From an uncultured Gemmatimonadales bacterium (GTDB lineage Bacteria; Gemmatimonadota; Glassbacteria; GWA2-58-10), in assembly GCA_964548275.1 (NCBI GenBank), contig CAZJQI010000008.1:14286-78285 (forward strand): a stretch of DNA of 64,000 nucleotides. Reading direction: 5' to 3'. This document shows positions 21,873 to 60,216 of the stretch, piece after piece (the first letter of the stretch is position 1; each line of letters starts with the position of its first letter). Both the position numbers and the translations under genes were made by a program. The notes under the pieces are model-generated. The model searched no databases. It saw nothing but the letters and a program-made list of their open reading frames with translations, and had not been told where the DNA came from.

Positions 21873-21899
21873 ATAAGCCTGCAAGGCACGGATCGCTCT

Positions 21900-22070
21900 T
21901 TAACCGAAAAAAATTCCTCGAAGCTCTGCTCCGTGGTAGCCCACTCCTGAGACAAACGTAGGGGCAACCGGCAGGTTGCCCGCGGGGTGGGGATGAAATT
22001 GTGGCATCAAATTTATAAAAAGAATTCCGAACAGATACACCGCGGCTTGCCGCGGGGTAGATCATTTGAT
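21900..22070. repeat. Dispersed intergenic element, copy A (between paralogs 1 and 2)
   Basis: Left motif gaaaaaaattcctcgaagctctgctccgtggta, internal hairpin ggcaacc-ggca-ggttgcc, right motif gatacaccgcggcttgccgcggggtagatcatttgat with embedded tight hairpin ccgcggc-tt-gccgcgg. Confidence 0.6.
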
Positions 22071-22107
22071 TTTGATAATATAACTCAGCCGGTAAGGACA
22101 TACGATC

Positions 22108-32130: not shown

Positions 32131-32520
32131 AATAGGTGCCTTAGCAATTGTCTGCCCTTTCAGTTTAAAGCCGGGAAAAATCCCCCTCTCCGGGATAAAA
32201 TCTTTCCTGATCCTGCCGGAATCTTAAAGTGCTTTTCCGCGGCAAATTTTGCTTACGGGGCTTCTTCTTATTTGAAATGCTTAAGGAGAACCCCTATTTT
32301 TCTAATTGGAGGCGAAAACTCCATTGCAAGGAGCGTTTATATTTATATTTGAATTTCGTAAACCTGTAACCATGGATAAAGTCAATTTTCTATTTTGATT
32401 CTGGCTAAAGTGAAGGTATTTTTCATTTAGCGAGTTATTTTCCTGAGCTTCTCATATTTAACTTTGCGTGGGGAAATGATCCGTTCCCGGGATTGAGAAA
32501 ACCCAGGAGATGGCTTTAAA

Positions 32521-32735
32521 GTTTAATCGAGAAGAATTCCCCGAAGCTTTGCTCCATAGTAAACAACCCGGGGATCGGCAGGTAATCCCCATTAACAAAA
32601 GGGAATCAATATGTAATCCCCCTAAAAAAGGGGAAGACAGGGGGTTGTCTTGATGTGTTCGCCCTCGGAGGAAATAAGATCGACCAAATTCATCATTATG
32701 ATACTCCGCGGCTTGCCGCTGGGCAGCTCATTTAT
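32521..32735. repeat. Dispersed intergenic element, copy B (upstream of mtaB)
   Basis: Left motif tttaatcgagaagaattccccgaagctttgctccatagtaaa. Internal units taatccccattaacaaaaggga / taatccccctaaaaaagggga / agacagggggttgtc. Right motif gatactccgcggcttgccgctgggcagctcatttatt. Confidence 0.6.
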
Positions 32736-32836
32736 TTTCGCTTTATAATTGGTTTAATTTAAATTAATTAGGACTCTTAACCTGAAGTGATTTATCAGGT
32801 ACAATTGGCCTTTCTGTTTCCGGGATACGATAGGGA

Positions 32837-46166: not shown

Positions 46167-46191
46167 CTGTTTCGTCCTTTACTTTGGTTTC

Positions 46192-46660
46192 TTTAATCGA
46201 AAAGAATTCCCCGAAGCTCTGCTTTGGTGTAAATTGCTTTATGGTTTTATCCTTGTTTTCATAGAGTTGCCTCGTGACACATACAATATTTATTCTCATC
46301 CTTCACAATTCGGGAAGAATGGGATTTAAACCTGGGGATCTTATTTCAGATCGTGCTTGAAAGCCACCATTCCCTCCTAACAAGGGGGTACATTCCAAAT
46401 TTTCCCCTATCAAGGGGGTTCATTCCAATTCCCTCCTAACAAGGGGGTACATTCCAAATTTTCTCCTATCAAGGGGGTTCATTCCAATTCCCCCCTATCA
46501 AGGGGGGACATTCCAAATTCCCCCCTATCAAGGGGGGAGACAGGGGGGTGTTATATTAAACAGTTGGGGTTTGGTACCCGAAATCGGGATCACGAATTTC
46601 AGGGATTCACACAAAAATTACACTGATACTCCGAGGCTTACCGCGGGGTAGTTCATTTAT
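46192..46660. repeat. Dispersed intergenic element, copy C (expanded copy, contains the tandem hairpin array)
   Basis: Left motif tttaatcgaaaagaattccccgaagctctgctttggtgtaaa at 46192. Right motif gatactccgaggcttaccgcggggtagttcatttat at 46625. Interior holds expanded repeats ending in agacaggggggtgt, as in copy B. Confidence 0.6.
46368..46549. repeat. Tandem array of ~29-30 bp hairpin-forming units (alternating two unit types, ~59 bp higher-order repeat, about 3 copies)
   Basis: Contiguous units cattccaa(a)ttccctcctaacaagggggta and cattccaaattttcccctatcaagggggtt. Each contains a C-tract...G-tract able to pair (CCCCC-N6-GGGGG). There are no intervening spacers. Confidence 0.8.
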
Positions 46661-46823
46661 AAACAAGTATTTTTTCCAAAATATTTCTTTGGAAGTTGAA
46701 CAAGTTATTAACAAAAAGAGTCTTTAAACCAGGTCCAATTTCTGCCTTGCCAGTTTAAACCCGCCTTCATCCCAGCCTAATAAAAGGCAGTATTAGATAA
46801 AATGGCAACAAATGGAGAATTAA

Positions 46824-50384: not shown

Positions 50385-51197
50385 ATGCCGGAATTACCGG
50401 AAGTTGAGACAATAGTACGCCAGCTTCAACCGGGCCTGGCAGGCTGCAGAATAGTATCTGTCGAAATCCTCGATCCCAGGCTGGAAACCCCGGCGAAAAA
50501 CAAGCTTCCCGGCAGGAAGATTCTCGATATCACCCGGCTCGGCAAGCAGGTCTGCCTGGAGCTTTCAGGCAATGACAGAGATGAAATGAAACTCTGGCTT
50601 CTGTTCCACCTGCGCATGACCGGCCGTTTGATCACCCATAGCTGCAGCTTGGACCAGAACGAGAGGCACCTTCGCGCGCGGCTGGTTCTCGACCAGGGAA
50701 GCCTGCTGTTCTATGATATGCGCAGTTTCGGCTGCCTTCTGGTGCTTGATTCCCTGCAGGAGGCCCTGCCTAAAGGAATCGATCCTCTATCTCGCCGATT
50801 TACCAGACGGAAGCTCAGGGAACTTATCAACGGTTCGAAACAGGAAATTAAGCCCTGGCTGCTGCGCCAGGATCGCCTGGTGGGGCTGGGCAATATCTAC
50901 ACCTCGGAAATACTGTTCGCCTCTGGAATAGACCCGCGAAGGCAGGCGGGTTCTCTTAAATCCGATGAACTGCATCGCTTGCACAGCCAGATTCGTCGGA
51001 TTCTCCTGCTTGCTATAAAAAACTGCGGCACCACATTCTCCGATTTCCAGGACTCCCAGGGACGAACCGGCTCTTTCCAACGTCTTCTTTCAGTTTACGG
51101 CAAAACAGGGCAGCCATGTCCCAACTGCTCCGGGCCGATCCAGCGCATTGTGCAGCAGCAGAGGAGCACCTTTTTCTGCTCCGCATGCCAGAAATAG
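50385..51197 (+). CDS. mutM: Formamidopyrimidine-DNA glycosylase MutM/Fpg
   Basis: MPELPEVETI N-terminus (catalytic Pro2/Glu3). C-terminal zinc finger CPNCSGPIQRIVQQQRSTFFCSACQ. Confidence 0.9.
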   Translation: MPELPEVETIVRQLQPGLAGCRIVSVEILDPRLETPAKNKLPGRKILDITRLGKQVCLELSGNDRDEMKLWLLFHLRMTGRLITHSCSLDQNERHLRARLVLDQGSLLFYDMRSFGCLLVLDSLQEALPKGIDPLSRRFTRRKLRELINGSKQEIKPWLLRQDRLVGLGNIYTSEILFASGIDPRRQAGSLKSDELHRLHSQIRRILLLAIKNCGTTFSDFQDSQGRTGSFQRLLSVYGKTGQPCPNCSGPIQRIVQQQRSTFFCSACQK

Positions 51198-51965: not shown

Positions 51966-52340
51966 ATGGCAGGCAGAGGCCAGGTTTTTAAATGCTCGGA
52001 ACATGAAATACTGGTCGAGGTGCTTCACGGGGGCGACGGAGAACTGCAGATCAACGGCAAACCTATGAAGCAAATGACCGAGAACACGGTTGATGCCGCA
52101 ACAGAAAAACACGTCCCGGTTATCCAGAGGACATCGCACGGTTACACGATTCATGTGGGAAGTGTGGCCCACCCCATGGAAGAAAGCCATTATATCGAGT
52201 GGATCGAACTGGTTACCGGGGACATGGTTTGCCGCAAATACCTCAAACCCGGTGACCAGCCGGTCGCCGAGTTTCCCGTGGTGGGCGAAAATGTTGTCGC
52301 CAGGGAGTACTGCAACCTGCACGGATTGTGGAAGGCCTGA
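51966..52340 (+). CDS. dfx: Desulfoferrodoxin-type superoxide reductase with degenerate N-terminal (desulforedoxin-like) domain
   Basis: C-terminal SOR site residues KHVPV, H...H, C-N-L-H (EYCNLHGLW). N-terminal domain has a single Cys (FKCSEHEILVEVL) rather than the four-Cys FeS4 site. Confidence 0.7.
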   Translation: MAGRGQVFKCSEHEILVEVLHGGDGELQINGKPMKQMTENTVDAATEKHVPVIQRTSHGYTIHVGSVAHPMEESHYIEWIELVTGDMVCRKYLKPGDQPVAEFPVVGENVVAREYCNLHGLWKA

Positions 52341-52412
52341 AAAAAGGGAAAGGTTATTCTTGTTTGACTAAAGGGGAGCGGGCCTGTGAGCCGCTTCCCT
52401 TTTTTCTTTTTT

Positions 52413-52500
52413 AGTCCAAAAGAATCGCTCGAATCTTTACCCCGGAGTAATCCTTCCAGAAGATCAGTCTTTAATCCCCCCTTTGGAAAAGACTCGTTCT
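52413..52500. repeat. Possible degenerate copy D of the dispersed intergenic element
   Basis: agtccaaaagaatcgctcgaatctttacc resembles the left-end motif (about 20/31). Followed by taatccttccagaag and tttaatcccccctttggaaaagac, which resemble internal units. Confidence 0.3.
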
Positions 52501-52909
52501 CTGCACTAGCTTTGGAAAGGTGATTATAATTGGTGCAAAGGTTGCCAATCACAGTATTTGCTTCTCCTATCAGATGACGGGGGAAACTTTCAGCATGAAG
52601 ATGTTTGCTGAAATCCTGCCGCCGATTTATCGATTGCGGTGTTATGCAGCTTAAAATGAGGGGAAAAACATTTATTTTTTTTTGCTATGATCAATATACC
52701 ACTTGACACTTTGAAAGAAAACAATTAATTATAATTAAAGAAGTTTAAAATCCTTCCGATTCCGGGCAGGAGGACATAATATTGCGATAAAACAAAAGAA
52801 AGCCAAACCAAGGCATAACAGTTTTAATATAGAGAATAGCGGTTTATATCCCCCCTCCTATTAATCCCTTATAATCTATTATTCGAAGTAATCTGCGCAG
52901 GAGGGCTCT

Positions 52910-54085
52910 ATGACCTGTCTTAAGATCAGAATACTGGCTTTATCTGCTGTTTATGGGATCACGCTGCTTGTTACAGAGGCTTTTTGCCAGGGAATCGATA
53001 GAGATGAGTACAGCGGAATAGATAATGACATCAATTCTGTTGTGATAACAGGCAAATCAAACCTGAAGACTGCCGAATTCCTAGAGATTCCTGCCTCCGC
53101 CCGTGGAATAGCACTGGGGAGCGCCTTCAGCGCAGTTGGCGATGATGTCAATTCCATATGGTGGAACCCGGCTGGACTGTCTTATCTAACCAGGATCGAG
53201 ACCTCGGTTTCGCACTTGAATTACAATCACCAATTCGGTATGGATTACACCTTCGCCGCCGCGGGAATTCCGATAATCAGAAACAAACTCACGCTCGGTG
53301 CTTTTTTCGGCTATTTTGACTACCGGGATTTTGAAATCACATCTATATCTCAACCCACCGGTACGGGGGAAATAGCCAAATTCTTCGATTATCAGGCCGG
53401 TGGCTCTTTGTCCTACCGTATTTTAAAAAATCTATCTTTGGGTTTCAGCCTCAAGCGAGTGCATCTTGACATGGGCGCCGCATACAAAGCCAGTGCGCTG
53501 GCTTTAGACGCAGGAGCCTTATACCGCTACAGCCATTCCAATCATCAGCTAAGCCTTTCCATTTCAGTACAAAACTACGGGACCGATTTTTCCAGCGAAA
53601 GAGTGATAGACAATGACATCAATCTGGATACAACCAGGGTAAGCCGCTATGGATTTTATAAAACTGTTACCTATGAGTTGCCTAGTTCGGTAACACTCGG
53701 GTTCGGCTACCAATATCAATTTGCTCAGAACTACAACATTCTGACTTCCTTCGAGTACTGCAAACCCAAAGAATTTTTAAACTCATATCAAAGTCTTAAG
53801 TCGCTTGGCATGGAATTCAATTGGCCGGTGTCAAAATTTCTGAAAGCCTCTGTCCGCGCAGGACGGCTTACCCTGGAAGGCCGCCGGCAGGCAGTATATG
53901 TGGAACAATTAAAGTATATGTTTCTAGGGGAAGGGGAATATACCCTGAAAAACCGGACCGAATCCCGATTAGGCTGCGGCTTGGATTTCACTGTCGCCAG
54001 CAGGTATGTCAGACTCGATTATGCGAGGAACATGAGGCAGGGCATACCGAACCAGGATTTTCTCACCCTGAGTGTAGGAATTTGA
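52910..54085 (+). CDS. porV: PorV-like (LptO / FadL-like) outer-membrane beta-barrel protein, probable T9SS component
   Basis: 391 aa with signal peptide. EFLEIPASARGIALGSAFSAVGDDVNSIWWNPAGLS matches the conserved PorV/UPF0164 N-terminal block. Remainder shows alternating beta-strand patterns. Confidence 0.7.
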   Translation: MTCLKIRILALSAVYGITLLVTEAFCQGIDRDEYSGIDNDINSVVITGKSNLKTAEFLEIPASARGIALGSAFSAVGDDVNSIWWNPAGLSYLTRIETSVSHLNYNHQFGMDYTFAAAGIPIIRNKLTLGAFFGYFDYRDFEITSISQPTGTGEIAKFFDYQAGGSLSYRILKNLSLGFSLKRVHLDMGAAYKASALALDAGALYRYSHSNHQLSLSISVQNYGTDFSSERVIDNDINLDTTRVSRYGFYKTVTYELPSSVTLGFGYQYQFAQNYNILTSFEYCKPKEFLNSYQSLKSLGMEFNWPVSKFLKASVRAGRLTLEGRRQAVYVEQLKYMFLGEGEYTLKNRTESRLGCGLDFTVASRYVRLDYARNMRQGIPNQDFLTLSVGI

Positions 54086-54109
54086 GGCCTGGATGTGGAG
54101 GCGAGCTCT

Positions 54110-54871
54110 GTGAGCTGTCTCAAGATTAGAATACTGGCTTTATCTGCTGTTTGCGGGATCACGCTGCTTGTATCCGGCGGCTGCCAGAGCGACAATCCGC
54201 TCGCACCCGGGAAAGGAGCGATTCTGCAGGATTACCTGCCGCTGCAGGGCAACAGCCAGGCTTACAGATTCACCTTGTTTTACTCATCGTGGCATGGACC
54301 GGATTCCTATTACTCCCATAACATAAACGGCATTTGCCAGATAATTATCATAAGAGGCCCGGACAATGCATCCTATTTTCACCTGATATCGACTGCTATA
54401 TTCAACGTTGAATTAGACTCCATTTTTAAACAACCGTATTATCCCGAATACGAAACTACCGTGAATAAAGATTACAGTATCTCCCATTCCAGTGATTTAT
54501 ACCTGTCCGCGGATTCCCTGTGGTACGAGGTGGACGATTCAGATACCTCGGATGCCGTGACCCGCAGGTTTGCAATGAATTACTCCAAAGACACGGGAGG
54601 CAGCGTCCTGGACCTGGCCCCGTTCCTTCCGCCCGGCTGGGAAATCAAACTATTTGGGCACAGTCCCGAAATATTGTCGAATAATACAGCCGAGACGAAA
54701 GGAGACACCCTTATTTATACTTTCGATGTAAGGCACAGACCTACAGATGTATATGAAGGTACAGCAAAGTTTCTGAAAGGCGCAGGACTCTTCTCCATCC
54801 AGTATACATTTTCGTGGGGCGAGGGGACGCTCTCAATTACACGCACGACTATCTCCTACACGAAAATCTGA
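54110..54871 (+). CDS. Lipoprotein of unknown function; shares its RBS and signal-peptide DNA with porV
   Basis: GTG 54110 preceded by GGAGG. Signal SCLKIRILALSAVCGITLLVSGGC is encoded by a 67 bp stretch that is 62/67 identical to the porV 5' end. Mature protein has no recognisable domain. Confidence 0.5.
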   Translation: MSCLKIRILALSAVCGITLLVSGGCQSDNPLAPGKGAILQDYLPLQGNSQAYRFTLFYSSWHGPDSYYSHNINGICQIIIIRGPDNASYFHLISTAIFNVELDSIFKQPYYPEYETTVNKDYSISHSSDLYLSADSLWYEVDDSDTSDAVTRRFAMNYSKDTGGSVLDLAPFLPPGWEIKLFGHSPEILSNNTAETKGDTLIYTFDVRHRPTDVYEGTAKFLKGAGLFSIQYTFSWGEGTLSITRTTISYTKI

Positions 54872-55023
54872 TCCGGACGCAAATACCTCGTATAACAGCA
54901 AAGGGGCTGTCCCAAAAGGGCAGTCCCTTTTTATTTTGAGTCTGATAAAGTAATTTTCCTTGCGGTAAAAATGGGTCAGATTTTGTCCGGGAGCTTAGAC
55001 AGCATTTTACACCGCGGGGCTGT

Positions 55024-57009
55024 TCATTTCTTCCTTAACTGCAGCTTCCAGGTATCCTTCAGCGGGGCATTATCGCCTGCTCGCAAGACTATCCGGTTCA
55101 GGTTTTCTCCCCAGGCCGAGCTTAGCCTGCTGTCATCGAGTTCTATCTTTTCCACTGCCGGTGTGAGCTTATCAGCAGGATAGTTCAGCTCGAGTTTGAA
55201 CCCCTCTCCCTCTGCACTCTTTTCACTCAGGGTGATCAGTCCTTTTTTCTCCAGGTTCACTTCACAGGGAGTGAGCAGGCTGAGCATCAGCTCTCCGTCG
55301 CGTTTGGCAAGCCTGTATGATTCCACCAGCCGCACCTCTTTACCTCGCACGAGGCGCACCGCGCGTTTCCATGAAATGACTCCTGCGCTTTCCGGGTATG
55401 CACCGGCAATATCGCTTGAAAGTTCGGCATAGGAGTTTTTCTCTTTATAGCGGACATCCCTGGCAGCGAAAGTCCTGCCCTCTTTCTGCATCACTCCGTT
55501 GATCGTGGGCAGGTTGTGGAAAGCCGACTGCATGGTCCATATTTCGTAGCGTTTATCGCTGAACGTTTTGCGAGTGTATGTGCCTACCCCGGCATCGATA
55601 ATCGCCGGTCGGCCGTCCACATAGACTGTGAAATTGCCCACATCGTTATGGTTGTGGTTTTCGGCATTGTGGCCTCCCTTGGCCGCAAGGTACAACCCCT
55701 CAGAGGTGCCTGCTCTGGAGCGTGCGGCCATGACCTGGATCCCGTCCAGCCAGACATCCCGTACATGCGGCTGAAAACCCTCAGCCGAGATCAGCTCGCG
55801 AAGGTTGGACAGTGCCGGCAAGGCCCGGCCTATACTTCCTGAGACACCCGGGTCTTTTGCCATCTGCTTTTTTGCCGCGTAAGCCCCCAGTGCGGCCATA
55901 TTTTTGTCGCCGATCCTTTTGCCAAACCTGTAGACCAGGTCACCGGCAATTCCCACCTTTGCCGGGGCGTCTGCGAAATTGATAAAATAACGCTCGTCTA
56001 TGTGCGTGCGGTAAATAAAACGTCCCATTTGCTGTATCAGTGGCTTGTTGTATATGTCGATCTCGCTGTTCGTGGCACTTCGCAGCAGCTCCAGGCAGTC
56101 AAAGAGCGAGGCAGCAGCCCGGCCCCAGTAGCTCGGGCCCTCATCGCAGCCGCCGTCCGGATGATAGGAAGAGATAAATAGATCGAGGCTCCGCAGAACT
56201 TTTTCCACAGCAGCGACGCGCCTGTTATTATCACCCTCGAGCAGAAAGTTGGCTGTGAGCCAGTTGGAATTGCACCACGGGTTCCAGTTGTTTATATGCG
56301 AACCAGAAAAACCCATCCACCAGAAATCATCCCTTTCAAGACAGGGCCGCAGCACTCGCACACTGGCCTCGCGCAGCAGCCGGGTGTTGATCAGCGGGGA
56401 AATCTCATCGAGCTGCGGGCCGATAAGGTAATGAATCCAGGCGAGAAGAGCCACGGTCTCGGCACTGAAAAGGTCCACAACCGGTTCTTCCACATCGGGA
56501 AGGCCGGAGCTGGCTCGCTGTGCGTTAATATGCGCCGGAATCACCCAGCTCGACTCTTCCAGAATCGCCCACACACCGTTTACTATCTCATCCATAAAAC
56601 GCCCCTTCGCCTCCATACACTCTGCCAGAACGAGATTTGCAAGCCGGTTTCTCCTCTCAAAATACGGCTCCTCGTACCTGCTACGGTTGCCGTTTATCGA
56701 GAACTCCAGGTAGAGGGTGGCAGGCAGCACGGGCCACTTTTCCCCGAGAACCTGTTCCGCCCTGGCGAGATGTACCCGGCGGGTTTGCTCGGGCAGCGAG
56801 TTCCAGAAATCCCGCTCTGCAAGGGTAGCAAAAGGATGCCATTCGGAGTGGGGCAGGAGAACTTCTCGAAGGGTTTCTATCGGGTACTGGGAACTCAGGC
56901 TGGGCTTGGATTGGCCGGGATAGGCAGGAAGCAGCTGAAAATAAGCGAGAAAGGGGAATAGAAACGCATTGACACACAATACCCTCCGGAGTTTTTTAGA
57001 GCTGAACAT
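55024..57009 (-). CDS. Heparinase II/III-like polysaccharide lyase (second copy)
   Basis: SD AAGGAAGG before ATG 57009, signal peptide. Alpha-helical N-domain. GGHNAENHNHNDVGNFTVYVDGRPAIIDAGVGTY matches the heparinase II/III GH.H.D signature. Confidence 0.7.
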   Translation of the reverse strand: MFSSKKLRRVLCVNAFLFPFLAYFQLLPAYPGQSKPSLSSQYPIETLREVLLPHSEWHPFATLAERDFWNSLPEQTRRVHLARAEQVLGEKWPVLPATLYLEFSINGNRSRYEEPYFERRNRLANLVLAECMEAKGRFMDEIVNGVWAILEESSWVIPAHINAQRASSGLPDVEEPVVDLFSAETVALLAWIHYLIGPQLDEISPLINTRLLREASVRVLRPCLERDDFWWMGFSGSHINNWNPWCNSNWLTANFLLEGDNNRRVAAVEKVLRSLDLFISSYHPDGGCDEGPSYWGRAAASLFDCLELLRSATNSEIDIYNKPLIQQMGRFIYRTHIDERYFINFADAPAKVGIAGDLVYRFGKRIGDKNMAALGAYAAKKQMAKDPGVSGSIGRALPALSNLRELISAEGFQPHVRDVWLDGIQVMAARSRAGTSEGLYLAAKGGHNAENHNHNDVGNFTVYVDGRPAIIDAGVGTYTRKTFSDKRYEIWTMQSAFHNLPTINGVMQKEGRTFAARDVRYKEKNSYAELSSDIAGAYPESAGVISWKRAVRLVRGKEVRLVESYRLAKRDGELMLSLLTPCEVNLEKKGLITLSEKSAEGEGFKLELNYPADKLTPAVEKIELDDSRLSSAWGENLNRIVLRAGDNAPLKDTWKLQLRKK

Positions 57010-57208
57010 CTCGACCTTCCTTGCTAAATGATTGTCCAGGCTGATACAGGCATCTTTTATCAATCAAGCTCATCAACAGATTATGCCTTTTGGAAACTAA
57101 GATAACAGGGAAGAAAATATACAAAGCAACTAACCCGGATTATTAATGAAACCCGGATCTTGACATGGCGGATCACTTATTTTCACATTTTTATCAGCCA
57201 CCGAGGGA

Positions 57209-57292
57209 GGGGGGCGGCGGCTGTGCGACTTGGGTCGCACAGGCCGTTGCGCTTTTGCACAACGGTGCGCATTTCATGCGCCCGCCGCCCCC
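57209..57292. other. 84-nt GC-rich multi-hairpin (three hairpins closed by an 11-bp stem), 24 nt downstream of the TPR gene stop
   Basis: Outer stem GGGGGCGGCGG / CCGCCGCCCCC. Inner hairpins ctgtgcgac-ttgg-gtcgcacag, ccgttg-cgcttttgca-caacgg, gcgcat-ttc-atgcgc. Confidence 0.5.
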
Positions 57293-57316
57293 AGGCCCCG
57301 CACAAACATTACCCTC

Positions 57317-59647
57317 TCACCCGATAATTTCGAACAGCACCGCCTCCTCGTCCCAGAACATCATCATGTTGTCCCGGGCCTCAATCAGCAGGCGGTAGGT
57401 GCCGGGAGCCAGCACTGAGCTGTCCAGCAGGAACGATTCGGCCACCGGGCCGTCGCCGGAATCGACCTCCCGATCGAAAATGTGCCTGATCTCGGTGTTT
57501 TCCTTGGCTTCGCCGAACGTGAGCAAGCCGGCCAGCGCGCCAGTGATCCGTCCCAGGATACTCTTTTCCCCCTCGTAGCGGATAACATCTATATACTCCC
57601 GGTAGCTGCGCTTGCCGCCGGGGCCGTTATCCAGGTTGTAGTATTCCAGGTAGACCCGGATTTTTTCGCCGCGCTGGAAGCGGAACGAGGGCCGGGGGAT
57701 AAACCGCACGCCGTGGCGCTCGTGGGCAGCTCCGCCCGCGGGCGGGTCCAGGCCGAGCACGATGGCGGATAGTTCCAGATATCCCTTGTTGAACCGCTTC
57801 AGATTCAGCAGGCCTCGCCCGTTCCAGCACTCCTCTCCAGCGGCCAGCTTGATCGCGTAGTTGCTCTTGCCGGGCGGGAAATACAGCCTGTGCACCGCCA
57901 CCCAGCGGTTTTCCGGTTCGCCGGGGATGCGGAAACAGTCGCTGTGGCTGCGCAGAAGTTCGGTCCACAGGGTGTCGTAGGCGGCCGCCACGGCTGTGAC
58001 CAGTTCGATGTGCTCGGGCAGCACCTGGTCCTGATAGATTTCCTCCGTGATTCCCGAGCCGTCGGCCGAGCGGAACTGCGCCAGGTAGTATTCCTCCGCC
58101 TCGTGGATTCCCGGTTGGACGTGCCTCTGCTGCTGTATAGCCTGCTGCATGTCACCCCATACTCTGGGCGTGCTGTTTTTGTCCATGTTTCCGAAAACGC
58201 CGGGGCTAGAAGGCGGGCGGAAGATGAATTCCCCGATCAGCGGCGGTTTCTCGAACATGAAAGGCCGGCCGTCGTACCACCAGATCTCCACCGGACCGCT
58301 CAGTTTATTATTAACCGGCATGCGCCCGCGATTGTATTCCGTGCTGAAGCTGGTTCTGTCTTTCTTGATTTTTTCAGGCGGACCGTAGCGGAGATACAGC
58401 AGGCCCCGGTGGTCCAGCCCCAGTGGATGCCCGGGGGAGAACGTGGTTTCCTCCGAGTGATATTTGTACTCGAAGCCATGGTAACCCAGAAGCTGAATAG
58501 CGTCTTCGCTCACGTTGAACCGGTTGTAAGGATTGTTCTGCCGGTAATTGCGCTGGACATGGCCCAGCCTGAGGTAGTGCTCGGCCAGCCGGCGATTGAG
58601 TCCGGAGAGCTTGTCGGGATTGCCGTCGGCCCAGAAGTAGTGGAGGAATTCCTTCTCCTGTCCCGCATCCACCGCCCCCCGGCAGCGGTCGACATCCTCC
58701 GGAGTGAAAATACCGGCGGCCTCGGCGAGCAGGCGGTCGAATTCGCCGGTGCGGCCGGCGGTCTCCACAGCTTGCCAGTAGAGGCGCTGGAAGGCGAGCG
58801 TGTCGCCTGTCTCCAGCCGGCAGCGGGCCTCCAGCAGGGGAATCTCCGGGCTGACAAACTCCGGGTTATCCTTCTGCAGTGCCAGCAGTTCGGCCAGGGC
58901 CGCCTCCGGCCCCTCAACCAGGTAGCGGTCCCGGGCCAGTTCCAGCCGCCAGGATGTGCTGTCCGGGTGGTTTTGCAGGTAGGCAGCCAGCAGGATAATC
59001 ACCCGCCGGATTTCCTCCACGGTGCGGTCTTTCACCCGCTCCCGCCAGATCCGGTAGGCGTCGCGGTAGCTGATATCCACCTCCAGCAGGTGCAGCAGGG
59101 CCCGCATTGCGATTCGCACATCATCCGTGGAGGGCTCGCCGTCGAGCATGATCCGCGCCTTGGCGTACAGCACCGCCGGGCTGTCCGGGTCGATCGCCAG
59201 CGCCCGGCGGAGATGATCCGGGGCGGTCCACTGTCGGTGCTTCAGCAGGTAAGCGCACCAGGCCAAGCCGGTGTGGGCGGCGATCCGAATGCTGTCGACT
59301 GGAGAGTACAGCGCGGCGGTGAAATCACGTGACGCGGCTTCGCGGTTACCGGCCATCAGTTGTAGCCGGCCGCGGTCCAGCAGAGCGACGTGGTTCTCCG
59401 GCTGCCGCGAGATCGTGTTATCCAGTATGACTAACGCTCCGGAGGTGTCGCCGGCGGCCAGTAGCTCGGCAGCGCGGTAATTACTAACGCTAAACGTGTA
59501 TTGGATTTCATGTTTGGGATATTCGGCACATATATTGCCAGCAAATAGGAGGCAAACCAGTACCAATTTGCCTCTTAATCCTATCTGTAGACAAGTGGCT
59601 TTGCCTGACATGTTCCTCATCTTCCTTGTGGTACTTTTATATTTCAT
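57317..59647 (-). CDS. Secreted TPR-repeat protein of unknown function (high-GC gene)
   Basis: 776 aa ORF with N-terminal hydrophobic signal (LVLVCLLFAGNICA). TPR-like helical repeats in the N-terminal third. The C-terminal half has no assignable motif. The long antisense ORF 57890..59332 is low-complexity (R/P/G-rich) and judged spurious. Confidence 0.5.
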   Translation of the reverse strand: MKYKSTTRKMRNMSGKATCLQIGLRGKLVLVCLLFAGNICAEYPKHEIQYTFSVSNYRAAELLAAGDTSGALVILDNTISRQPENHVALLDRGRLQLMAGNREAASRDFTAALYSPVDSIRIAAHTGLAWCAYLLKHRQWTAPDHLRRALAIDPDSPAVLYAKARIMLDGEPSTDDVRIAMRALLHLLEVDISYRDAYRIWRERVKDRTVEEIRRVIILLAAYLQNHPDSTSWRLELARDRYLVEGPEAALAELLALQKDNPEFVSPEIPLLEARCRLETGDTLAFQRLYWQAVETAGRTGEFDRLLAEAAGIFTPEDVDRCRGAVDAGQEKEFLHYFWADGNPDKLSGLNRRLAEHYLRLGHVQRNYRQNNPYNRFNVSEDAIQLLGYHGFEYKYHSEETTFSPGHPLGLDHRGLLYLRYGPPEKIKKDRTSFSTEYNRGRMPVNNKLSGPVEIWWYDGRPFMFEKPPLIGEFIFRPPSSPGVFGNMDKNSTPRVWGDMQQAIQQQRHVQPGIHEAEEYYLAQFRSADGSGITEEIYQDQVLPEHIELVTAVAAAYDTLWTELLRSHSDCFRIPGEPENRWVAVHRLYFPPGKSNYAIKLAAGEECWNGRGLLNLKRFNKGYLELSAIVLGLDPPAGGAAHERHGVRFIPRPSFRFQRGEKIRVYLEYYNLDNGPGGKRSYREYIDVIRYEGEKSILGRITGALAGLLTFGEAKENTEIRHIFDREVDSGDGPVAESFLLDSSVLAPGTYRLLIEARDNMMMFWDEEAVLFEIIG

Positions 59648-59913
59648 GCAATAGTCGAACTGTGCAACCTTGAAACACTGTCATAGACCGTGTCGAACAG
59701 TATCAGAAGTAACGTAATCCGGGTCCGGCGAAGGTGAAAGCCCTTTGATTTTATTTTAACTCTATTTTTTCATTTTTTCAAGTTTATTTTAAATAATTTT
59801 CATTATTTATCCTTTAAACATTGTCGCCTTGCTCAAAATGGAAGCTTGTTTTACCACACACCAGATCAAGAGTTTTTCGCATGGAAGAGAAATAAGTGGT
59901 TTAGATCTCTCAG

Positions 59914-60216
59914 TTGGTTTTCCTTTGGCCTAGATCTACTGTTCTCCCAGCGCTGTACGGTTCCAGGATCAACTACCATCTGAATAGCCAATTCCTTTTA
60001 GCTCAAGCCAATAAACTGCCGGTATCTGTCTATCTTTTCCCCCCAGGCTGCGGGTTGAATTTCACTGTCGCCGGCAGATCTGTCAGACTCGCCGACACAA
60101 GCTTTGGTGCGGCGAAAATACGATTTGCTGAAAAATTGTTTGATAGACGTACCAAGTGTGTTTATACTTGTAGGCATCCGTCCGAAGGGAATCCCACCGG
60201 ACGGTGTGTCAGCTAG
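59914..60216 (+). pseudogene. Possible remnant of a PorV-paralog 3' end
   Basis: Nucleotides 60046-60091 are 41/46 identical to porV 53972-54017. In-frame peptide GCGLNFTVAGRSVRLADT versus PorV GCGLDFTVASRYVRLDYA. The surrounding ORF has no other homology I can see. Confidence 0.3.

Follow-up and report, generated by a model that had tools for sequence, protein, structure and literature searches.

A short leader sequence shared by two adjacent, otherwise unrelated genes of an outer-membrane barrel and a predicted lipoprotein: probable partial duplication followed by short-tract gene conversion

Two adjacent genes are located on the plus strand of the window, which means the whole 64-kb stretch of DNA analysed here; the features given below lie on the same strand unless stated otherwise. 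Gene 1 (52910..54085, 391 aa) encodes a PorV/PorQ-family (FadL-like) outer-membrane beta-barrel, as indicated by family models and a PDB sequence match. It passes the curated cut-off of NCBIfam NF033709 (PorV_fam) with 119.5 bits against 90 and scores 35.8 against the Pfam Toluene_X cut-off of 29.7. Among PDB sequences, PorV (6h3i_F, E 7.5e-4) is the sole significant match. On the other hand, the scores with the equivalog models are far under their cut-offs, with 36.3 bits against at least 250 for NF033710 (T9SS PorV) and 73.2 against at least 220 for NF033711 (PorQ). Therefore, the functional name PorV is unjustified. The PorV barrel named in an earlier note on this DNA is kept as a member of the PorV/PorQ subfamily but not as PorV proper. 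Gene 2 (54110..54871, 253 aa) encodes a predicted lipoprotein of a small family without Pfam or NCBIfam model, and its start was taken as called in JGI contig L012. The AlphaFold model of the lipoprotein is all-beta (pLDDT 73.8). The best PDB match to this model had an E of 0.01 and a TM of about 0.3, and a functional assignment through structure was withheld. The intergenic gap between the two genes is 24 nt. An intrinsic-terminator-like hairpin was found only 3' of gene 2 (54900..54930). Since there is no such hairpin between gene 1 and gene 2, the pair looks like one operon. The 5' untranslated region (52831..52893) is ~91% identical in a diverged relative, L007, and a diverged version of it precedes the lipoprotein gene of L005, a locus without barrel gene. 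The neighbour genes encode thiol peroxidase, desulfoferrodoxin, a heparinase II/III-like protein and a TPR protein, and no recombinase gene was found among the neighbours of the locus.

Each gene starts with a copy of the same DNA. The first copy, R1 (52894..52971), is composed of an AGGAGG ribosome-binding site, the ATG at 52910 and codons 1-21 (MTCLKIRILALSAVYGITLLV) of the barrel gene. The second copy, R2 (54094..54171), begins 9 nt past the stop codon of gene 1 and is composed of a GGAGG ribosome-binding site, the GTG at 54110 and codons 1-21 (VSCLKIRILALSAVCGITLLV) of the lipoprotein gene. Sequence inspection, a repeat search and direct count gave 68 of 78 identical bases (87%). The repeat had been noticed earlier as a match of 62/67 between 52905-52971 and 54105-54171. 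The repeat itself is confirmed, but the direct count over this core is 61/67, with mismatches at 52910, 52914, 52921, 52927, 52953 and 52954. Its content, namely the Shine-Dalgarno region, ATG against GTG and the first ~20 codons, is as had been described, with 21 codons per copy. Beyond the core, the repeat is extended in the 5' direction by weaker similarity across the ribosome-binding site. The spacing from R1 to R2 is exactly 1200 nt. At this offset, the identity per 20-nt block is 15-18/20 within the repeat and 0-7/20 outside of it. The blocks upstream of 52900 reach 5-7/20, which means that there is no common promoter, operator or long 5' untranslated region. The limits of homology are thus -16 and +62 around each start codon, and the 3' limit is a common 8-mer, CTGCTTGT, directly 5' of each gene's own cleavage region. 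Past the leader, similarity between the two genes is absent, and the proteins are unrelated as previously claimed: the barrel belongs to the PorV/PorQ family, and the lipoprotein has no family match. The identity of R1 and R2 in the window includes synonymous sites. An exact 25-mer and an exact 17-mer are common to both copies and occur twice each in the 64 kb, where shuffles expect ~0. A chance origin of the identity is excluded. Against the coding part of the leader, every other site in the window scores below 32/62, and at the protein level the leader peptide, (M/V)(T/S)CLKIRILALSAV(Y/C)GITLLV, is carried by two ORFs only.

Codons 1-21 of both copies correspond to the n- and h-regions of a Sec signal peptide, and the c-regions are private. 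The comparison of cleavage sites proposed in the earlier note gave a predicted signal peptidase I type site, TEAFC↓QG, for gene 1 (c-region TEAFC↓Q, 52973..52990) and a predicted lipobox, SGG↓C, for gene 2 (c-region SGG↓C, 54173..54184, preceded by LLV). The former was deduced by sequence comparison and the latter by family alignment. The mature N-terminus of gene 1, QG..EYSG, aligns with distant PorV-family homologues. The lipobox Cys is invariant in all 10 of the 10 lipoprotein family members, and several of them have the canonical L-A-G-C. By its lipobox, the gene 2 product is a predicted lipoprotein and a predicted substrate of Lgt and LspA.

The layout was 100% identical in contigs of two separate JGI metagenomes, 3300008516 (30 kb contig) and 3300028837. 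A protein collection has further entries for both proteins, from Logan assemblies and from an NCBI contig of 85.5 kb. The same layout was observed in L007, whose DNA identity is ~88%. An assembly artefact, a possibility considered in the earlier note, is therefore ruled out as the source of the repeat by independent assemblies and a diverged relative. A third copy of the leader was present neither in the 64-kb window nor in 185 kb of fetched loci, and the leader was not seen on any further exported protein of the window. A 42-aa query with the two leaders in tandem was searched against 5.8 billion proteins and gave 8 word-sharing candidates with 0 at E<=10; the sensitivity of this search was low, because even known carriers failed to score. 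The DNA pattern of the leader had one match in 185,579 species genomes, in an unrelated membrane-protein gene of a Methanoregula MAG, which was judged to be chance, and no match in viral contigs. A metagenome scan with the lipoprotein alignment yielded three loci only, and the leader was in none of them. In the data searched, the leader was thus not found on many genes, the observation by which the earlier note would have taken it for a common lineage-specific signal peptide. The sequence is metagenome-derived and signal peptides are compositionally alike, which would suit an explanation by artefact or by a signal peptide common in the lineage. Considering the independent assemblies, the DNA-level identity far beyond chance and the lack of a third copy in the window, the fetched loci, the genome and viral collections (by pattern) and the protein collection (by word), such an explanation has a negligible probability.

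Relatives of the two genes were compared. They are divided with respect to the leader, since L007 carries both copies and the lipoprotein orthologues in L006 and L011 carry an unrelated one. In the family alignment, 6 of the 10 lipoprotein family members, with 39-83% identity to the window protein, have a leader of another type, MxxN..., with 25 residues up to the lipobox Cys. L006 and L011 show 91-92% DNA identity to the window lipoprotein gene from CTGCTTGT onward, and 5' of it their match to the window leader is 24/67, which is the chance level. Because the MxxN... leader is kept in these close orthologues as well as in distant members, the shared leader is derived in the lipoprotein gene, whose original leader was of the MxxN... 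type. We infer that the leader came originally from the barrel gene, for the single reason that the barrel gene is the other carrier; the leaders of distant PorV-family proteins have no recognisable similarity to it. The layout of L007 is 5'UTR-R1-barrel gene-R2-lipoprotein start, and its sequence stops 9 nt past the second copy. The two copies of L007 match each other at 44/67 positions overall and at 11/27 in their centres. The duplicated layout, seen in two lineages only (the window and L007), is older than the split between them. In the first 6 and in the last 6 leader codons, any two of the five copies seen agree at 13-18/18 positions, so some constraint on these conserved 5' and 3' blocks is possible. 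The start codons vary among the copies (ATG, GTG, TTG). Distant lipoprotein homologues are located alone or in tandem with no barrel gene beside them, and distant PorV-family homologues are located in different operons. A conserved barrel-lipoprotein gene pair was rejected, since homologues of either gene occur without the other. An upstream box common to L006, TTTTAATAT..GAAT..CGGTT, was marginal (1/300 shuffles equalled the match) and was not relied on.

A putative gene-conversion patch was identified in R1 (52929..52949). Here 11 of the 21 sites differ between window R1 and L007 R1, and window R1 is in the R2 state at 11/11 of them. The patch is flanked by surviving R1-specific sites, codon 4 CTT and codon 15 TAT. 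The background difference between the window and L007 is 7.1% of sites in the 5'UTR and gene body. At this rate, the probability of at least 12 differences in 27 sites is ~1e-7, or ~1e-4 after correction for some 1000 window positions. Within the centre of the leader, window R1 is identical to window R2 at 25/27 sites and to L007 R1 at 15/27. By this comparison, an R1 patch of about 21-31 nt carries R2 states in the window lineage and not in the L007 orthologue. Ectopic gene conversion between short intragenomic repeats, also described as concerted evolution, makes paralogous copies in one genome more alike than orthologous copies. The window tract is similar in that it is sharp-edged, its flanks are normally diverged and its paralogous similarity is higher than its orthologous similarity. 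It is dissimilar from the usual case in its very small size (about 21-31 nt) and in its location in a 78-nt repeat within otherwise unrelated genes. We infer a transfer from copy 2 to copy 1. Alternatively, the 11-site patch could be a replacement in the first copy of L007, and the single hybrid copy of L005 is compatible with either direction. It looks as if only a patch of the repeat was recently homogenised and the duplication itself is older. The recombination or gene conversion suggested earlier is therefore supported as the cause by the relatives, but the word recent does not apply to the duplication, which predates the L007 split.

The Logan contig L005 (1.1 kb) can be aligned over its full length (87%) to the window sequence from which 52894-54093 has been removed. 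It retains the 5'UTR of the barrel gene upstream, and the lipoprotein gene, the terminator and the next gene downstream. This locus presumably arose through recombination between the two direct repeats; alternatively, the contig could be chimeric, with the join in the repeat. Around the ribosome-binding site, its leader is of the second-copy type (14/16), and a single crossover would therefore have to fall at the very 5' end of the repeat. The whole operon is inside a strain-variable island of 2.6 kb (52405..55029, without strand). The island is absent in L019, where the flanking convergent core genes are 68 nt apart. A 47-nt remnant (60045..60091), detected by the repeat search at the edge of a second variable island, matches 53971-54017, in the 3' part of gene 1, at 89% identity; located 6 kb from the operon, it is a trace of a past rearrangement involving gene 1. 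Judged by the remnant and the absence of the island in L019, the region is recombination-prone. The island as a mobile element was rejected, as it has no plasmid match, no target-site duplication at its edges and no neighbouring recombinase. A weak 34-nt match between its left edge and a repeated intergenic element had no significance in blastn.

A partial duplication or replacement probably put one DNA piece before both genes, and short-tract gene conversion between the copies probably followed. A single piece with ribosome-binding site, start codon and Sec n- and h-regions would have come to head both genes of the operon, and the duplicated copies would later have swapped sequence by short-tract gene conversion. 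Each copy would be merely the membrane-targeting part of a signal peptide. The private cleavage regions would set the route, sending the barrel to signal peptidase I and the lipoprotein to lipidation and signal peptidase II. Working proteins would be obtained only from recombinants retaining the private cleavage regions, and this need would explain the sharp 3' boundary at CTGCTTGT. The repeat is an ordinary recombination by-product of a known kind rather than a new device, and no new mechanism is needed.

The opposite history would start from a tandem duplication of a lipoprotein gene that owned the leader, after which a PorV-family body with its cleavage region replaced the mature part of the first paralogue in frame. 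Tandem paralogous lipoprotein genes of the family do exist in other lineages (L022; the adjacent P0009/P0010), and L005 has the arrangement 5'UTR-leader-lipoprotein, without barrel gene and with a ribosome-binding-site part of the second-copy type. However, the tandem paralogues elsewhere bear their own MxxN or MESY leaders instead of the shared one, which within the lipoprotein family is a derived trait. An in-frame illegitimate fusion within the signal peptide and the loss of a whole paralogue body would also be required. Therefore, this history is unlikely. The absence of the barrel gene from L005, the exact product expected from an excision, and the location of the operon in a strain-variable island could also be read as a programmed switch, in which repeat recombination removes or re-inserts the barrel gene behind a fixed promoter-leader site in the style of cassettes or phase variation. 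We regard this as very improbable. The lipoprotein gene of L005 is ~8% diverged from that of the window, so L005 represents a different lineage and not a variant inside one population. Direct repeats lead to one-way deletion, the exact identity within the repeat is just 25 and 17 nt, both independent assemblies have the full layout, and no neighbour gene encodes a recombinase.

The earlier note had also proposed a selected translation or targeting module, with co-regulated translation initiation or a common export route as examples. An identical initiation region and targeting sequence would keep the barrel and the lipoprotein co-regulated or co-targeted, for instance via a common RNA-binding regulator or export route. 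The single operon, the conserved first and last 6 codons of the five copies and the identity at synonymous sites are in its favour. However, Rfam with permissive thresholds gave nothing in 52300-55000. The predicted RNA folds of R1 and R2 are not alike, neither is more stable than those of shuffled sequence (z -0.65 and +0.09), and no structure is common to the folds of the window copies and those of L007, L005 and L006. A pairing against the ribosome-binding site (52851-52860/52899-52905) was predicted in the window and rejected, being not above shuffles and missing from the best fold of L007. Also, L007 retains both genes with leaders matching at only 44/67 and centres at 11/27, the start codons differ, the cleavage regions are private, the orthologues of L006 and L011 work with an unrelated leader, and the other exported proteins of the window do without it. 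The selected module was thus not supported and is improbable, though slightly less so than the switch. No evidence was seen for selection on the identity of R1 and R2 itself.

Leader sharing via recombination has precedents in Borrelia erp (PMC10016077), Mycoplasma vpma/vsp (PMC2268961) and S. aureus lpl (PMC2568036). As in erp and vsp/vpma, one leader stands on genes with unrelated mature parts, with an identity of 61/67 in the window. The erp genes of Borrelia burgdorferi (OspE/F-related, 'upstream homology box', Elp) form a large multicopy family on prophage plasmids, whereas the window has two adjacent genes, with two leader copies in 64 kb and no further carriers in the collections searched. 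All erp products are lipoproteins with the same sorting residues, while one of the window genes encodes a predicted signal peptidase I substrate (TEAFC↓QG against SGG↓C). The common part of erp includes promoter and operator; that of the window covers <=16 nt before the start codon and ends before the cleavage region. In Mycoplasma agalactiae vpma and M. bovis vsp, the 5' untranslated and signal-peptide coding regions are conserved among clustered, otherwise differing genes (PMC2268961). Phase variation of these genes depends on a tyrosine recombinase encoded next to them, whose target sites lie in the 5' region, and the genes have a common lipobox, AAKC. In contrast, no recombinase was found at the window locus, the cleavage motifs differ, and each gene has one copy of a direct repeat. 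In the tandem lipoproteins of S. aureus lpl, studied by Tsuru and Kobayashi in 2008, homologous recombination at a short conserved segment within adjacent ORFs reshuffles both sides (PMC2568036). The unit of evolution is not the ORF in lpl and in the window alike. However, lpl genes are full-length paralogues with a central recombination site, and the window genes are non-homologous with a common segment at the extreme 5' end.

For annotators, the result means that N-terminal identity of adjacent genes is not equal to homology, and short-read assemblers may join such repeat loci wrongly. The leader duplication opens no long-standing question. There is a very slight probability that the 78-nt pair is a working device, namely a fixed promoter-plus-leader 'expression site' where recombination between the repeats would insert or take out mature-protein cassettes (a barrel or a lipoprotein). 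Such a leader would be neutral on the processing route, and each cassette would supply its own cleavage region. In that case, the window, L005 and L006 would represent different states of one modular locus for envelope proteins in a lineage that is uncultured. With partial duplication and gene conversion as the preferred explanation, very short repeats within an operon may undergo gene conversion and can drive the loss of the intervening gene. Also, one non-homologous gene could then receive the targeting part of its signal peptide from another, even if one encodes a signal peptidase I substrate and the other a lipoprotein, provided that the cleavage region stays private.

The leaders of the two adjacent genes lie within direct repeats at 52894-52971 (copy 1) and 54094-54171 (copy 2), which show 68/78 identity at an offset of exactly 1200 nt. 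The earlier note had reported a duplicated 67-bp leader with 62/67 identity at 52905-52971 and 54105-54171. The strong match was reproduced, but a direct count gives 61/67, with copy 1 mismatched at 52910, 52914, 52921, 52927, 52953, and 52954. Exact blocks of 25 and 17 nt are common to both copies and occur twice each in the window, where chance would give none. No other position in the window reached at least 32/62 identity with the coding part. Six-frame translation of the window gave the leader peptide in just two ORFs, those of the two genes. The repeat layout is 100% identical in contigs of two different JGI metagenomes, both proteins are listed on one 85.5 kb NCBI contig in the protein collection, and the layout is seen again in a diverged relative, L007. 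Therefore, an assembly artefact was ruled out. The repeat is real and well explained.

The first gene (52910-54085, 391 aa) encodes a PorV/PorQ-family outer-membrane barrel. Its product scored 119.5 bits with the NCBIfam PorV/PorQ subfamily model (cut-off 90) and fell far under both equivalog cut-offs, PorV and PorQ. The sole significant match in a PDB sequence search was PorV (6h3i_F, E 7.5e-4). The product of the second gene (54110-54871, 253 aa) matched no Pfam or NCBIfam model, and its family is small, with 10 clusters among 5.8 billion proteins. The family is marked by an invariant cysteine behind the hydrophobic leader and by a conserved DNPLAPGKGA motif after it; this pattern points to lipoproteins. 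The AlphaFold model of the product is all-beta (pLDDT 73.8), with no convincing match in the PDB. The spacing of 24 nt between the genes, and the only terminator-like hairpin found, which is 3' of the second gene (54900-54930), makes them a predicted two-gene operon. Each repeat copy has its ribosome-binding site and start codon (ATG in copy 1, GTG in copy 2), together with 21 codons that encode the n- and h-regions of a signal peptide, the former charged and the latter hydrophobic. The homology ends on its 3' side at CTGCTTGT (Leu-Leu-Val), and the sequence beyond is private to each gene. In the barrel gene, the private cleavage region TEAFC↓QG is a predicted signal peptidase I site, because the mature start QG..EYSG can be aligned with distant PorV-family homologues. 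In the lipoprotein gene, it is the lipobox SGG↓C. The ribosome-binding site of the barrel gene (52899-52905) has a possible pairing partner in the 5'UTR, the C-rich run CCCCCCTCCT (52851-52860). This pairing appears in the best fold of the window, yet is no better than shuffles, and is not in the fold of L007.

L007 has the same order as the window (5'UTR, copy 1, barrel gene, copy 2, and lipoprotein start), and its barrel protein is 84% identical (about 88% for DNA). Its own copies share 44/67 identity overall and 11/27 in the centre. These sequences show that the leader duplication is old. Against a background difference of 7.1% of sites between the window and L007 (5'UTR and gene body), 11/21 sites of copy 1 differ at 52929-52949. 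At all 11, copy 1 of the window has the state of its own copy 2, which at 10 is also that of copy 2 in L007. Such a cluster would arise by chance with a probability of ~1e-7 per scan position and ~1e-4 after correction. Copy-1-specific states are kept on either side (CTT at codon 4 and Tyr at codon 15). This mosaic patch is what a short gene-conversion tract would leave behind. Transfer from copy 2 to copy 1 is favoured because that donor is in cis; a replacement in copy 1 of L007 is the less likely alternative. Another related contig, L005, can be aligned over its full length with the window once 52894-54093 is removed, and its lipoprotein is 87% identical. Its order is the 5'UTR of the barrel gene, a single leader, the lipoprotein gene, the terminator, and the next gene. 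Such a layout would be the product expected of recombination between the repeats, with the caveat that this 1.1 kb Logan contig may hold a chimeric join. Near the barrel C-terminus, L007 (1055-1110) has three tandem 8-residue GRLTLEG-like repeats, opposite which the window (53880-53950) has about 30 unrelated residues; this stretch is hypervariable in genes otherwise 93% identical.

An MxxN... leader with 25 residues to the cysteine is found in six members of the lipoprotein family (39-83% identity). The DNA of two related contigs, L006 and L011, is 91-92% identical to the window from CTGCTTGT onward. Upstream, their sequence is MRRNKVSVTLGAIITLAGLLV, and its match to the window leader is at the chance level (24/67); in both contigs, exactly 21 codons have been replaced. 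The shared leader is a derived state in the lipoprotein gene, and its inferred donor is the barrel gene. The most likely history, and a fairly probable one, is a partial duplication or replacement of the leader between operon neighbours, then gene conversion and deletion. The first event would have set the ribosome-binding site, start codon, and n/h-region of one gene on its neighbour, with the junction at CTGCTTGT, the 8 nt common to both leaders. This junction would be survivable only with both cleavage regions intact, and would have survived because each was left so. A short tract would later have been swapped between the 78-nt copies through gene conversion, and in one lineage the copies may have been the substrate for loss of the intervening gene. 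Recombination or gene conversion had been suggested as the cause in the earlier note, and the comparisons with relatives support it. The opposite history, a tandem duplication of the lipoprotein gene after which the body of the first gene was exchanged, is unlikely.

A selected translation or targeting module, also suggested there, found no support. An Rfam search of 52300-55000 gave no match. The RNA folds of the window copies are unlike each other and no better than shuffles (z -0.65 and +0.09), and no common structure was found among the copies of L007, L005, and L006. The start codon of the leader copies may be ATG, GTG, or TTG. On these genes the leaders are diverged in L007 and unrelated in L006 and L011, and the leaders of other exported proteins in the window differ. 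A segment selected for co-regulation or targeting is thus very improbable. Nor did the leader prove common to many genes, the finding that would have spoken against a local duplication: 185,579 species genomes gave one match, judged chance, viral contigs gave none, and an insensitive word search of 5.8 billion proteins gave 8 candidates, none scoring. That the repeats form a programmed switch is less probable still.

The barrel-lipoprotein operon is accessory. In the related contig L019, whose flanking genes share 93-96% identity with those of the window, 52405-55029 is absent, and 68 nt separate the convergent genes for desulfoferrodoxin and the heparinase-like protein. Several further contigs bearing close relatives of both flanking genes differ in length from the longest contigs that are listed for the clusters of the lipoprotein, an indirect hint that the empty site is common. 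More distant lipoprotein homologues are solitary or tandem paralogues, and distant PorV-family homologues are located in other operons; the pairing is not conserved. A second strain-variable island has at its right edge a 47-nt fragment (60045-60091, 15 codons) with 89% identity to the 3' part of the barrel gene (53971-54017). This fragment probably remains from another or an earlier barrel-gene copy, and it adds to the evidence that the surroundings of the barrel gene have been rearranged. The operon island (52405-55029) and the second island (57155-60095, with the gene of a 776-aa TPR protein) flank the heparinase-like gene, and L019 has neither. No target-site duplications or mobility genes were found at the island edges, no recombinase among the operon neighbours, and no plasmid match for the operon island. 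Two stretches of about 70 nt, at 50583-50655 and 52089-52158 within the fpg and desulfoferrodoxin genes, are missing from the contig of JGI sample 3300028837, which is otherwise 99.9-100% identical to the window; the contig of 3300008516 matches the window in full. The gaps reflect either strain variation or a difference in assembly.

Other repeats and paralogues were also observed. In other lineages the lipoprotein family forms tandem paralogue pairs (L022, 439-2001, and the P0009/P0010 contig), with separate leaders and near-identical lipobox and mature-protein start (LCACGNDDNPLA). In L016 (269-1721) a homologue of the lipoprotein gene is cut off after 86 codons by an insertion, which bears on the opposite strand a 410-aa gene for a putative mutator/IS256-type transposase. 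The window holds three copies of an intergenic element (21897-22072, 32520-32738, and 46190-46663), 77-91% identical within two conserved blocks; in the third, hairpin-like units of 29-30 nt follow one another head to tail at 46369-46545 (ATTCCCTCCTAACAAGGGGGTACATTCCA). The segment 19563-27486 carries three paralogous genes in tandem, each about 2.5 kb long (769, 769, and 982 aa), with DNA blocks 60-90% identical.

Leader sharing over unrelated mature parts, made by recombination, is known from the Borrelia erp genes (PMC10016077, PMC12242104) and the Mycoplasma vpma/vsp loci (PMC2268961). A third case is the S. aureus lpl cluster, in which a short shared segment within adjacent ORFs is the recombination site (PMC2568036). 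The present locus resembles them in the general process, ectopic recombination with gene conversion. However, it does not belong to these families, because it has just two members within the window, no common promoter or long 5'UTR, and no recombinase among its neighbours, and it crosses processing classes, a signal peptidase I barrel and a lipoprotein. The locus is a fresh example of an already known type of event, and its significance is modest.
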